From an uncultured archaeon (lineage in GTDB: Archaea; Iainarchaeota; Iainarchaeia; Iainarchaeales; GCA-2688035): a stretch of DNA of 64,000 bases. Within the stretch, counting starts at the first letter, position 1. Each line of letters starts with the position of its first letter. The position numbers and the translations under genes were made by a program. The stretch lies in NCBI GenBank assembly GCA_964354805.1, contig CAYHBD010000009.1, forward strand, positions 116,770 to 180,769, in the 5' to 3' direction. Shown piece by piece: positions 7,137 to 58,154 of this stretch. Below the pieces are notes generated by a model. That model made no database searches. It was not told the DNA's origin and worked only from the letters and a program-made list of their open reading frames with translations.

Positions 7137-7295
7137 AAAAAGTGGCGAAAGAAGAGTTAAACAATATTATTAAAGACTTTTTAAACGCAATTAATTGAAA
7201 GGGGCAAAAGAAAAGGGGCAATTGCAATGCAACTCATCAGGCAGAAGCCTTTTTTGCTGATGCAAAAAAGCCTTGGGAAAGAAAGGTGCCAATAA

Positions 7296-7898
7296 ATGCG
7301 GCTGGTAAGGCAGGGAGCAGAGGCAAAGCTGTTCAGAACAGAATTTGAGGGAAAGCCCGCGCTCTTGAAGCAGCGTTTGCCAAAAGATTACAGGTGCAAT
7401 GAGTTGGATGAAAGGCTGAGGAAGGAAAGAACAACAGTGGAGGGAAATCTGCTGAGGGCCGCAAGGCAGCTTGGCATCAACACACCGCTCGTTTTCTCAG
7501 TTGAAAAGGGGAAGAGCGAAATATTAATGCAATTCATTTCCGGGCCCAGGGTAAAAGACGTTTTAAGCAAAAAGAACCTGAAAATCTGTAGTGACATTGG
7601 CAAAGCAATTGCACTAATGCACGAAAGCAATCTGATTCACGGCGACCTGACCACTTCAAATATTCTGCTTGACGGAAAAAAGTTGTTCTTTATTGATTTT
7701 GGATTGGGCTACCGCAGCAGCAAGCTGGAGGACAAGGCAGTTGATTTGCTTGTTTTCAAAAAAACATTTGAGGCAACCCACTGCAAGCTGATGCCAAAAG
7801 GCTGGGAGAAAATAATTGGGGGCTATCTGCAGGCAGGCGGCTCAGATGGCATTGTAAAACAGATGCAGAAAGTGGAGCAAAGAGTGAGGTACCATTAG
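7296..7898 (+). CDS. bud32: KEOPS complex kinase Bud32
   Basis: QGAEAKL, KxRxPKxYR, IHGDLTTSNI, FIDFGLG, EDKAVDL, C-terminal RVRYH. Confidence 0.92.
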   Translation: MRLVRQGAEAKLFRTEFEGKPALLKQRLPKDYRCNELDERLRKERTTVEGNLLRAARQLGINTPLVFSVEKGKSEILMQFISGPRVKDVLSKKNLKICSDIGKAIALMHESNLIHGDLTTSNILLDGKKLFFIDFGLGYRSSKLEDKAVDLLVFKKTFEATHCKLMPKGWEKIIGGYLQAGGSDGIVKQMQKVEQRVRYH

Positions 7899-8112
7899 GC
7901 AGCAAAAAGGCTTTGCCGAAGGCAGTTTTCCCAAGGCTTTTTCCAGGGGGAAAAAGGCTTTTTAAATGTTTTGAAAGCAAAGGTATTTACAATTTTTAGT
8001 TTTTTCTTTCCCGTTTCAGTAAGAGCGGGAAGGTAGCTGCTGAAAAGCGGTGATTCTTGGCAAAAAATGAAAATGGCTGGCAAGGTAAACCCAATCGTTT
8101 TTGGTGATTTTA

Positions 8113-8811
8113 TTGGCAAAAAAGAAGGAAGAGCAAAAAGAGGGCAGGGAAGCCAAGCGGGAAAAGGCTAGCGATAAGAAGGCTGCGAAAGAAAAGGAAG
8201 AAGAGAAACAGAAAGCTGCCGAAAAAAAGCCCAGGCAGCACAAGCCGAGGGTAACGGAATTGGAGCACAAGCTGGCTGAGGCACAGGAAAAGCTTAGGCA
8301 GAAAAAGGAGAAAGAGGCCAAAGAGGAGGGCAAAGCAGCTGAAAAAGCCACTGCTGAAAAGCCGCTGCATGCAAAGGAAGGTCTGCCTGAAAGACTGCAC
8401 AGGGAGCGGAAGCCGGGAGTTCCTGCATGGGTTGAATTAAAGCCAGCTGAGGCAGTTGAGGCAATGGTTAATCTGGCTAACGCAGGGCACAGCAGCAGCG
8501 AGATTGGAATGCTTTTGAGGGACCAGTACGGGGTTCCAAACATTAAGGCATTGTGCGGCAAGAGCATTGAAGAGATTCTTGCAGAGCACAAATTGCTGCC
8601 TGAGATTCCATCAGACCTGATGAATTTGATTAAGAGAAGCGTTAATTTAAACAAGCACCTTGCGAAAAACAGGAAGGATTTCACTGCAAAAAGGGGCCTG
8701 CAGCTCAGTGTCGCAAAAATCAGGAACCTTGTAACTTACTACAAGAGAAAGGGCAAGCTGCCAATGGACTGGCATTACAGCGAGGAAACAGCAGCATTGC
8801 TGGTGAAGTGA
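8113..8811 (+). CDS. rps15: 30S ribosomal protein S15 (uS15) with long Lys/Glu-rich N-terminal extension
   Basis: SEIGMLLRDQYGVP, PEIPSDLMNLIKR, KDFTAKRGLQL, YYKRKGKLPMDWHY; GGTGA SD before TTG 8113. Confidence 0.92.
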   Translation: MAKKKEEQKEGREAKREKASDKKAAKEKEEEKQKAAEKKPRQHKPRVTELEHKLAEAQEKLRQKKEKEAKEEGKAAEKATAEKPLHAKEGLPERLHRERKPGVPAWVELKPAEAVEAMVNLANAGHSSSEIGMLLRDQYGVPNIKALCGKSIEEILAEHKLLPEIPSDLMNLIKRSVNLNKHLAKNRKDFTAKRGLQLSVAKIRNLVTYYKRKGKLPMDWHYSEETAALLVK

Positions 8812-9001
8812 TATTAAAAAAGTGAATTAAATGGATTGTGGTTTTGTTTTGAAAAAGCAGGGCAAAGTGATTGCAAAACAGAAAGGGATTGCTGACTTGC
8901 AGCAAATGCTTTGTGCAATTGACGCAGTAATCACGAAAGAGCAGGGCAACTGAAAATGGATGCTGAAAAAGGAAAAAATGGTGGAACAAAGGTGACTGAG
9001 A

Positions 9002-9610
9002 ATGGCTGCTGAGAAAGAGAAGAAGGCAAGGGTTGTTGACAAGTGGAAGAAAAAGCAGTGGTTTGAACTGGTTGCGCCGAAAGAGTTTGATGAAAAGGTC
9101 ATTGGCGAAACAATTGCTGAAAAAGAGAAAAACCTTTTGAACAGGGTTGTGAGCGTTAATCTGGGCGACCTGAGCGGCCAGAGGCAGAGAAGGCACATAA
9201 GCATCTTGTTCAAGGTAGTGCAGGTTGAAGGAAAGAGGGCGAAAACAATTGCAATTGGCCACAGCATAAGCGGGGGCTTTGTGAACAGAATGATCAGGCG
9301 GAGAATGAGCAAGCTTGAGGTAACCCAGCAGATTGACATTGCTGAAGGAAAAAAACTGAAGGTCAAAACCATTGTTCTTTCTGTTAAAAAGCTGAGCAGC
9401 AAGCAGGAAACTGCCCTGCGAAACCAGCTGGCTGAAAGGATTGAAAAAATGTACAGGAAAAAGACAGAGCTGCAGACAATGCAGGAATTGTTTTTCGGAG
9501 TCACGGCATCCAAGCTTTTCAAGCCACTTTTAAAGATCGCGCCACTGAAGAAAATCGAAGTGATTGAAAGCAGGCTGATTGGACAAGGGGCAATTGAACA
9601 AAAGGCTTAA
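9002..9610 (+). CDS. rps3ae: 30S ribosomal protein S3Ae (eS1)
   Basis: VDKWKKKQWFELVAPKEF, IGET, RMIRRRMSK, KIAPLKKIEVIES; conserved position after uS15. Confidence 0.92.
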   Translation: MAAEKEKKARVVDKWKKKQWFELVAPKEFDEKVIGETIAEKEKNLLNRVVSVNLGDLSGQRQRRHISILFKVVQVEGKRAKTIAIGHSISGGFVNRMIRRRMSKLEVTQQIDIAEGKKLKVKTIVLSVKKLSSKQETALRNQLAERIEKMYRKKTELQTMQELFFGVTASKLFKPLLKIAPLKKIEVIESRLIGQGAIEQKA

Positions 9611-9685
9611 AGAAAAATTGAATGACTGAATTAAATTTAAATAAGTTAACGCAGGCTGATTGGATAGAACTGTCGAAGGGAAAGT

Positions 9686-56796: not shown

Positions 56797-56884
56797 TTTA
56801 TTAAAGAAGGGCTTTTGTCATATTTAAAGCTAATTATAAGGCTCTTGCCAAGTTGTTTTGAAAAAAAAACGGGTTTTTTTAATT

Positions 56885-56974
56885 ATATCAAAAGACATTA
56901 ATCAGGGTATTTTTTGAATGTCTTTTGATATTTATCAAAGGACAAAAATAATTGTATAAAATTGTCCTTTGATA
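56885..56974. promoter_or_regulatory. Four alternating copies of TATCAAARGACA (tandem inverted repeats)
   Basis: 15-bp arms 56885-56899/56917-56931 and 13-bp arms 56933-56945/56962-56974. Confidence 0.6.
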
Positions 56975-57002
56975 TTAAAGAGAAACAGCAAAAGCAGGTT
57001 TT

Positions 57003-57656
57003 TCAGAAGCTCGCCCATCTCGCAATTTCCTGAATTGCTGCAATGTCTGCATCAAGGTCGGAGATTTTTTGCTGCAGTTCCTCAACCTTTCTGTTGCTTT
57101 GCTCCATCCTGAACTGCTGCAGCAGGTTAGCGTACTGGGCAACCCTCTTGTTATTTTTGTAGACAATGCTTTCGTCAACTGTCTGAACAAGCTGCTTTCT
57201 GTAATCGATGTCTTCCAAAAAAACCCTGACCATTGGCTGCCATCGCTTGTCGGCAACCAAATCAATCGGCAGGTGTACCTTTTCGCTGTCTGTTTTGTAG
57301 TCCCTGTCAATCGCGCATTTTGCCAGATGCCTCCAGAACAATGGCTCCTTTAGTTTCTTTATGTTCTGGACAACCCTGTAGGAAGAGGCGTCATTGAATT
57401 TTTTTTTCCAATCGGCAAGCCTGTCGGAATACTGCTCCCTAAGCAAACGCAGGTCATCAATCCGCTTCCTCAAATGCTTTTTTGTCGGATAGAGCATCCT
57501 TGGCCAGTCTGTATCGCTTGGAACAACATGCAGCACTCCGCCCTTTGACAAATAGTGCTGCAAGGCAGAAACCCTGCCAGTGTCAACAGCGCTGCCGAAT
57601 TTTGGGGGCAGCATTTTCTGCAGCTGGTCAAAACTGCTTACAATCTCCTTCCGCAT
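57003..57656 (-). CDS. Hypothetical alpha-helical/coiled-coil protein
   Basis: 217-aa ORF with host-like codon usage and a C-terminal heptad pattern. Confidence 0.7.
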   Translation of the reverse strand: MRKEIVSSFDQLQKMLPPKFGSAVDTGRVSALQHYLSKGGVLHVVPSDTDWPRMLYPTKKHLRKRIDDLRLLREQYSDRLADWKKKFNDASSYRVVQNIKKLKEPLFWRHLAKCAIDRDYKTDSEKVHLPIDLVADKRWQPMVRVFLEDIDYRKQLVQTVDESIVYKNNKRVAQYANLLQQFRMEQSNRKVEELQQKISDLDADIAAIQEIARWASF

Positions 57657-57803
57657 AGAAAATTAATTGTTAGTGCTATTAATAAACTTTTTGAAACAAA
57701 CCATTTCTACAGGGCTTAAAAAGGGCAATGGATTGAGGGTGAAAGAAATGTTTCCAAACATTCTTTCACAAAGAAACAAAGAGACAAAACTTGAGGTGAA
57801 AAA

Positions 57804-58154
57804 ATGTTTCCCGGATTGAATTTGCGGAATATGGACCCGAAGAAAATGCAGTCAATGATGAGGCAGTTCGGCATAAAAAGCGAGGAAATCGAAGCGGAAA
57901 GAGTGATAATTGAGGGAAAGGGAAAGAGAATTGTAATAGAGCCTGCTTCAGTTACTGCCGTTGACCTGGGAGGGAAAAAAACCTATACAGTGATGGGCGA
58001 GGAAAGGGAAGAAGGCAAGGGAATAAGCAAGGAAGACATTGAAATGGTTATAAAGCAGGCAAACGTGAGCGAGAAAAAGGCAAGGGCTGCCTTGCAGAAA
58101 AACGATGGAGACATTGCGCAGGCAATTTTGGAATTAAAGGGAGAAGCAGATTAA
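57804..58154 (+). CDS. nac: Nascent polypeptide-associated complex protein
   Basis: MDPKKMQSMMRQFGI, EDIEMVIKQANVS, GDIAQAIL UBA-like C-terminus. Confidence 0.92.
   Translation: MFPGLNLRNMDPKKMQSMMRQFGIKSEEIEAERVIIEGKGKRIVIEPASVTAVDLGGKKTYTVMGEEREEGKGISKEDIEMVIKQANVSEKKARAALQKNDGDIAQAILELKGEAD

Follow-up and report, generated by a model that had tools for sequence, protein, structure and literature searches.

Short tandem duplications echo the starts and ends of genes in an uncultured archaeon of the Iainarchaeota

The stretch of DNA analysed here, in the following called the window, comprises 64,000 nucleotides (C9:116770-180769) of a metagenome bin of 1.38 Mb, which is 88.5% complete and represents a DPANN archaeon of the Iainarchaeota. 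Among its genes are valS, bud32, uS15, eS1, a DUF92 gene, NOG1, DP2 (the large subunit of PolD), cdc6, and NAC, as identified by Pfam and NCBIfam. For one further gene HxsB was the best match yet under its cut-off, and this gene is hence called hxsB-like. Just outside the borders of these genes lie short second copies of the genes' own starts or ends, which we term echoes (Table 1). The initial annotation had described eight such motifs upstream of core genes, and all eight are present. The echoes of gene ends, which form the larger class, had been missed.

Table 1. Echoes of gene starts and ends, and one hairpin-repeat core, in the window. L numbers refer to contigs used for comparison; SD, Shine-Dalgarno motif; ORF, open reading frame.
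Feature	Position	Strand	Remarks
valS 3'-end echo	3960..3992	+	50 bp downstream; 50-bp unit missing in congener L214
bud32 start echo	7227..7244	+	22-codon ORF, stop abutting the true ATG at 7296
Hairpin-repeat core	7245..7280	+	directly 3' of the bud32 echo; also present in L214
uS15 SD and TTG start echo	8049..8067	+	56 bp upstream; mini-ORF stop 5 nt before the true start
eS1 start echo	8947..8976	+	46 bp upstream; unit missing in L198, present in L214
DUF92 'echo' of the initial annotation	9622..9630	+	9-bp match at chance level, unproven
Ancestral eS1 3'-end echo	9649..9667	+	common to L214 and L198
NOG1 start echo	15800..15827	+	41 bp upstream; ATGA overlap at the end of the mini-ORF; also in L031
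DP2 distal start echo	27086..27104	+	common to L217, missing in L219
DP2 proximal start echo	27153..27172	+	53 bp upstream; mini-ORF stop 5 nt before the true start
cdc6 3'-end echo	31019..31063	-	58 bp downstream; copies differ silently at 7 of 15 codons and at 0 amino acids; in L219, not in L217
hxsB-like proximal start echo	41908..41951	-	56 bp upstream
hxsB-like distal start echo	41965..41998	-	in frame with the proximal echo
NAC SD and start echo	57737..57755	+	56 bp upstream; full-length tandem unit in L215; missing in L207, L208, and L216

Genes were called with a purpose-written script (1,254 genes), and the 866 genes with sufficient flanking DNA were tested. Thirty bases around each start were aligned to the 171 bases upstream, and an alignment score of at least 14 was taken as an echo. 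The upstream DNA of other genes, which preserves SD motifs and composition, served as null. The end scan mirrored this test with the stop region and the downstream DNA, and echoes were counted genome-wide at 30-130 bp from the gene tip. Start echoes were found at 30 genes (3.5%, compared to 0.1% in the null) and end echoes at 70 genes (8.1%, null 0.1%), so that end echoes are about twice as common and 99 genes (about 11%, one gene in nine) carry an echo at either border. A single gene has both, which is no co-occurrence (p 0.5). The spacing is mostly 37-75 bp with a median of about 51 bp, and the similarity is maximal at the start or stop codon and declines into the gene over about 27 bases. 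No comparable excess was found when codons 20-30 were aligned to the same upstream DNA, with probes from the middle of genes, or with the reverse complement, and the genome scan revealed no inverted echoes. The expectation that the frequency is far above chance was thus borne out by the controlled scan. The class as a whole shows a large excess, and the term 'pervasive' stands here for about one start in 20. When each of the eight cases is scored singly against the upstream regions of the 866 genes, the eS1, NOG1, DP2, and hxsB-like echoes are clear (p about 0.001) and those of uS15 (0.04) and NAC (0.03) are weak, whereas bud32 (0.10) and DUF92 (0.07) do not stand on their own. The bud32 echo is backed by its conservation in the congener L214; the DUF92 match sits within a 28-bp piece that is absent from L214.

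The echoes are real and no artefact of assembly, because two Logan contigs from two runs (L196 and L197) are 100% identical to the window across the eS1 and DUF92 junctions, and because contigs of congeners from other studies, which are 80-93% identical to the window, contain the NOG1, eS1, uS15, bud32, DP2, NAC, and cdc6 echoes with substitutions of their own. Other congeners have the same genes with empty alleles, as is the case for NOG1 (a 42-bp gap in L214) and for eS1, the NAC start, valS, and cdc6 in the contigs given in Table 1. The reverse is found at the ends of DP2, NAC, and a gene of 102 amino acids, which are echoed in relatives and unechoed in the window. According to this presence and absence the units measure 42-64 bp, and since congeners have or do not have the same units, the echoes are tandem duplications that are gained and lost among congeners. 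Wherever flanks can be traced, the ancestral outer flank stays with the echo while the working tip adjoins a new spacer. The NAC start in L215 is a complete 56-bp tandem unit, of which the first copy in the window has its left part deleted, and it is this deletion that leaves a short core and a seemingly unrelated spacer. Similarity across the full period is seen in about 30 repeats of the genome, G001 contains a near-perfect 41-bp tandem unit with a short overhang, and units of full length occur in G004. Among about 100 echoes at gene borders, only two are near-perfect and complete. The spacers are mostly 14-48 bp long, show no visible common sequence, and have a weak gapped similarity to the expected flanks of 7.3 and 6.5 compared to 5.5 +/- 0.2. 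Some loci carry three copies. The presence patterns of loci only a few kb apart clash, the cdc6 echo being shared by the window and L219 and a DP2 echo by L217 and L220. Units are therefore lost again and again or reshuffled through recombination.

Duplications were also observed in other arrangements. At G000 C3:17999-18071, a 37-bp duplication covers the stops of two convergent genes such that either copy is the end of one gene and an echo of the other. Several young, purely intergenic duplications (G000 C42:3736, C8:7254, C30:73820, and C30:70283) are centred on TATA-like motifs, which suggests duplicated promoters.

Repeats of equal spacing were found at rates of 0.2-0.6% with coding probes, 1.75% in plain intergenic DNA (null 0.17%), 2.8% at starts, and 6.4% at ends, and 69 of the 71 repeats inside genes are in frame. 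Because similar repeats are also present in plain intergenic DNA, we read the process as position-blind and subsequently filtered by selection, the borders being the filter and not the target. Copies at borders are probably detectable for a longer time since one of them is conserved. The proposal of the initial annotation that a recurrent process leaves scars by duplicating short segments at gene borders is supported by the empty alleles, the full tandem units, and the three-copy loci. The median distance between co-directional genes is 65 bp in this genome, whereas relatives have 13-47 bp; just 25% of the neighbours here lie within 15 bp of each other.

The start echoes were reported to be out of frame or soon stopped, and their mini-ORFs turned out to be non-random and to end preferentially at the true start. 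Of the 29 ORFs opened by out-of-frame start echoes with an intact start codon, 23 have their stop no more than 13 nt from the true start; matched non-echo genes predict 11.6 (p 5e-6), and the harshest null, which is based on coupled genes, predicts 16.3 (p 0.007). When this DNA is read in its other frame, 11 of 29 stops lie near the true start, and in relatives all four start echoes (4/4) behave likewise. Upstream of the hxsB-like gene, a single ORF of 32 codons runs through both echoes and stops 5 nt before the true start. The working starts have stronger SD motifs (median -6.5 kcal/mol) than the average of all genes (median -4.6 kcal/mol), and also stronger ones than the echoes. In Haloferax, re-initiation is almost abolished at gaps of about 20 nt (PMC10666635). 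The simplest reading of the mini-ORF stops is a survival filter for re-initiation, in which the ribosome would be relayed from the old to the new start. Evolved control is less likely because the units appear and vanish among congeners.

Most echoes of the genome fit plain duplication and decay. At some loci, the two copies differ almost exclusively at silent positions, with silent and amino-acid codon differences of 6/1 in DP2, 7/0 in NAC, and 7/0 in cdc6. In the DP2 of L217, the last 12 codons of the working copy depart from the empty allele at 7 silent positions, compared to 0-2 in each of the next eight windows, and the echo is nearly equal to the empty allele. The NAC echo in L207, where the copies show 7 silent and 0 amino-acid differences, is likewise nearer to the empty alleles than the working copy is, and the cdc6 of L220 reflects an event of its own, in which the working tip carries a series of private silent changes. 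Summed over nine events in congeners, 58-69% of the differing codons are silent, the value depending on which lineage stands for shared events. Between congeners, dense blocks of at least 6 silent differences in 10 codons occur 14 times versus 3.7 +/- 1.8, and the variable sites cluster by lineage within 12 bp (132 runs versus 59 +/- 7). Patches imported from diverged alleles would explain both the recoded tips and the silent clusters inside genes. The idea of replacement by diverged alleles, which was also put forward in the initial annotation, might accordingly be retained for a subset of the echoes and for the terminal 30-70 bp only. Replacement of whole genes was rejected: start and end echoes do not co-occur, and the silent changes end at or just upstream of the duplicated stretch. 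A donor of the recoded patch was found neither among the few congeners compared nor in viral contigs. Homologous recombination has been reported in another Diapherotrite (PMC5905446). It is conceivable, if rather doubtful, that the species of this genus routinely swap homologous patches of 50-100 nt, which would leave a mosaic of silent changes when integrated in register and a swapped tip with an echo when integrated out of register, the relay filter then picking the start duplications that persist.

Taken together, the echoes are probably what remains of short (about 35-75 bp) duplications in head-to-tail orientation, which accumulated more in this lineage than in relatives, and the scheme has several steps. 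A piece spanning a gene border is inserted beside itself, as is evident from the empty alleles, with the echo usually retaining the ancestral outer flank and the new copy becoming the working tip. To judge from the positions, events within genes would be purged, while events over a start or a stop would leave one intact gene. According to the statistics, a duplicated start survives mainly if the working SD is strong and the ORF from the old start stops near the new one, and ribosomes could then re-initiate or at least would not run over the new start. The units subsequently decay, get trimmed, stack to three copies, or are deleted, states that are all observed. In a minority of cases, for which the copies differ only silently, a patch of 50-100 nt from a diverged congeneric allele may have been integrated out of register. 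Several observations weigh against this scheme. Microhomology of 4-6 bp at the unit spacing exists in five of seven empty alleles and is missing in two, a count without a chance control. The excess of swapped stops (16 swapped, 5 lost) is weakened by the fact that stops differ in 6 of 19 ortholog pairs anyway. The silent fraction of the differing codons in the 70 end echoes, 0.35, is within the range simulated for self-duplication and decay (0.28-0.35), so that allele input is shown for the tail of the distribution only, where 7 silent-only echoes contrast with 2-3 expected. A donor allele in single-copy state with the spacer as natural flank was not found, and the clustered substitutions could be multi-base mutation events instead of imports. 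In addition, the gene calls are our own, and while stops are reliable, starts are less certain and some may be off.

The source of the duplications is, as our best guess, annealing at replication gaps. As candidate enzymes, a reverse transcriptase and Cas1 were not found in this 88.5% complete genome, while NucS is present. DprA was found in one of the 41 genomes searched and not in this one. Loss of Fen1 as a mutator was ruled out, since Fen1 is present here and in 37 of the 41 genomes. Tyrosine recombinases were rejected as well, because they are present in almost every relative and show no correspondence with the echoes.

A dispersed hairpin repeat, whose stem varies while its 11-bp tail is fixed, occupies 76-88 loci in this genome, with 0-110 strict matches in relatives. 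It explains some echoes, about four, because three of its copies abut a perfect duplication of 21-28 bp within 0-1 bp and the bud32 locus has the same layout. At the cut-off used, a flanking repeat is present at only 4 of 87 element loci, one of which is not beyond its null, and words of the element are not enriched after echo-bearing stops (8/70 versus 33/419). The check in related metagenome-assembled genomes that had been proposed in the initial annotation, for which 90-250 kb were sampled from each relative, revealed 12 end and 6 start echoes in 639 genes of element-bearing members of the family. No echoes were found in three element-free family members (317 genes) and in five other families (526 genes); G024 (25% GC) gave no information, its null being high. 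Over ten genomes of the family the echo rate tracks the element count (rho 0.88), although kin are not independent. The parallel could stem from machinery, or from a tolerance of insertions, that these genomes have in common. No exact match to the hairpin or to the recoded tip was found in viral contigs.

The hairpin repeat also appears in other contexts. A second copy lies just past the bud32 stop (7927-7960, minus strand) and is mostly missing from L214. The uS15 protein has a long N-terminal extension rich in Lys and Glu (8113-8420), and in L214 (near 9060-9110) a reversed hairpin element of 51 bp lies in frame within this extension, together with a target duplication of 8 bp. About 14 tRNA genes (G000 C2, C7, C9, C10, C28, C30, C32, C35, and C42) contain introns just 3' of the anticodon, and these introns are hairpin-repeat copies or variants; two further copies abut tRNA 3' ends. 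The bud32 insert was considered as a spliced bulge-helix-bulge intron, but folding showed no such structure.

The closest alternative to the scheme of duplication with partial allele import is that all echoes are microhomology-mediated self-duplications that decay neutrally, the silent-only cases being due to chance, clustered mutation, or conversion between copies. The codon positions of the mismatches and the silent fraction match a duplicate-then-decay simulation, the unit in G001 is near-perfect, the cdc6 echo of L219 looks partly converted by its own gene, and the mechanism is a general one whose products are depleted in coding sequence (PMC13167724). Such a purely internal origin is nevertheless unlikely, given that near-perfect full-length units are so scarce at borders, that it is the working copy of DP2 in L217 which is recoded and not the echo, and that the silent codons in the nine congener events exceed the simulated 28-35%. 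Less likely still is a general origin from the hairpin repeat, which would insert close to gene tips, duplicate a long target, and later be lost, leaving an echo and a short tail. Removal of a core of 36-40 bp would indeed yield spacings of 33-63 bp, remnants are seen in spacers of G001 and G011, and both the three abutting copies with the similar bud32 layout and the correlation with the element count point in this direction, but the rarity of flanking repeats, the missing enrichment of element words, and the spacers without common sequence do not.

The hypothesis that the echoes are evolved decoy starts or upstream ORFs tuning the translation of core genes, which had been offered in the initial annotation, found no support and appears very unlikely to us. 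It would account for the start codons kept in 27 of 30 cases, for the mini-ORFs ending near the true start, for the slightly higher coding scores of echo genes (p 3e-4), and for bud32, where the mini-ORF in L214 is still coupled despite a 1-nt indel and the echo has three silent changes. However, the NOG1, eS1, NAC, and DP2 units are missing in close congeners, with bud32 as the exception so far, congeners differ in the frame or length of the uS15 and eS1 mini-ORFs, no significant depletion of stops is seen past the copied stretch (4/138 versus 12/246), and end echoes, which have no start at all, are twice as frequent. Even more improbable are remnants of integrated cassettes that brought a replacement gene tip and have since lost their cargo. 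A perfect 39-bp end duplication at C9:28419-29513, 765 bp apart, brackets two small genes and is the single case with cargo among about 1,000 genes, an extra gene is located upstream of NAC in L215 and its end seems to persist in the window, and the layout of a foreign working tip and a displaced old tip is that of icd/icdC (PMC13626634). Against cassettes speak that no echoes at 180-600 bp were found among about 1,000 genes, where random loss of cargo would have placed some, and that the recoded tip and the spacer were unmatched in viral contigs. The locus with the bracketed genes (G000 C9:28419-30280), which are 90 and 118 codons long, is in itself a likely cassette insertion accompanied by a long duplication of the target. 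That the echoes are assembly chimeras of co-occurring strains, as might be feared for a genome that is a metagenome bin, is practically negligible given the identical contigs from two runs and the congener units with their own substitutions.

Some further differences to the congeners concern the neighbourhood of the echoes. The eS1 protein has 202 amino acids in the window compared to 194 in congeners, its ancestral stop having been replaced with a gain of 8 codons (9584-9610). Upstream of secD and secF (14411-14608; 15692-15770, minus strand), decayed stacks of T-rich repeats are present, of which pieces of 56-99 bp differ from L214 and L031. In L214 (13585-14147), a MazE/PemK-type pair that is not present in the window lies between an exosortase gene and secD, adjoining the echoed secD end. 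The interval between DP2 and cdc6 has a different gene content in each congener, and the DP2 of one of them (L219:5582-10456) contains an intein with a faint LAGLIDADG hit.

The echoes provide a measurable case of a small archaeal genome that is loosening instead of streamlining. The rule that stops fall near starts is evidence from natural mutations that the re-initiation distance matters in DPANN archaea, in which this is not yet testable in culture. If the recoded tips are imports, genes flow among these archaea at a scale of tens of bases, and if patch exchange is true, this micro-scale gene flow would be lineage-wide, below the size detected by recombination scans, and would also push a compact genome apart. 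As false starts and stops, echoes are able to mislead annotation. Nothing specific on such a pattern in DPANN was found in the literature, most subscription papers being outside the search. The additions of the present analysis are the controlled genome-wide rate, the empty alleles, the relay statistic, and the recoded working tips.

Compared to known systems, the nearest kind is microhomology-mediated tandem duplication, with traits of short-patch illegitimate recombination and of displaced gene ends. The former (PMC13167724) has in common with the echoes the short head-to-tail units, alleles with one, two, and three copies, the depletion from coding DNA, the near-neutral fate, and the occurrence in archaea. 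Here, however, about 11% of the genes carry a border unit, near-perfect units are scarce, and some copies differ only silently. Since Fen1 is present, a missing flap nuclease does not account for the units. Identity of the copies at birth is seen in G001, in G004, and in two border units of this genome, but apparently not at the ends of DP2, NAC, and cdc6; a term search of the same paper found no mention of stop codons. Short-patch illegitimate recombination (SPDIR) introduces patches of 3-100 bp of outside single-stranded DNA at microhomologies, which fits the size and the clustered substitutions among congeners. In wild type it is a very rare event, and its donors are heterologous, whereas those here would be alleles of the same gene and the product a duplication. 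In homology-facilitated illegitimate recombination, as at the displaced 3' ends of the Vibrio type VI secretion system and Rhs loci (PMC5361080), the new allele also takes the working place and the old end is moved outward. That process concerns whole genes or domains at special loci, in contrast to the 30-70 bp tips of housekeeping genes found here, which have no long imported tract and occur in a genome in which DprA was not found. The element e14 at icd/icdC (PMC13626634) and insertions with long target duplications (PMC2853133) similarly leave a working replacement tip, a displaced pseudo-end, and duplications near 45 bp, but the echoes have nearly no cargo, no common attachment sequence, and about 100 unrelated loci. 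Finally, coupling by termination and re-initiation (PMC10666635) needs a gap of less than about 20 nt between stop and start, and this is where the echo ORFs end, often as ATGA. In the known cases the upstream partner is a gene, while here it is an accidental ORF of 14-32 codons made by the duplication.

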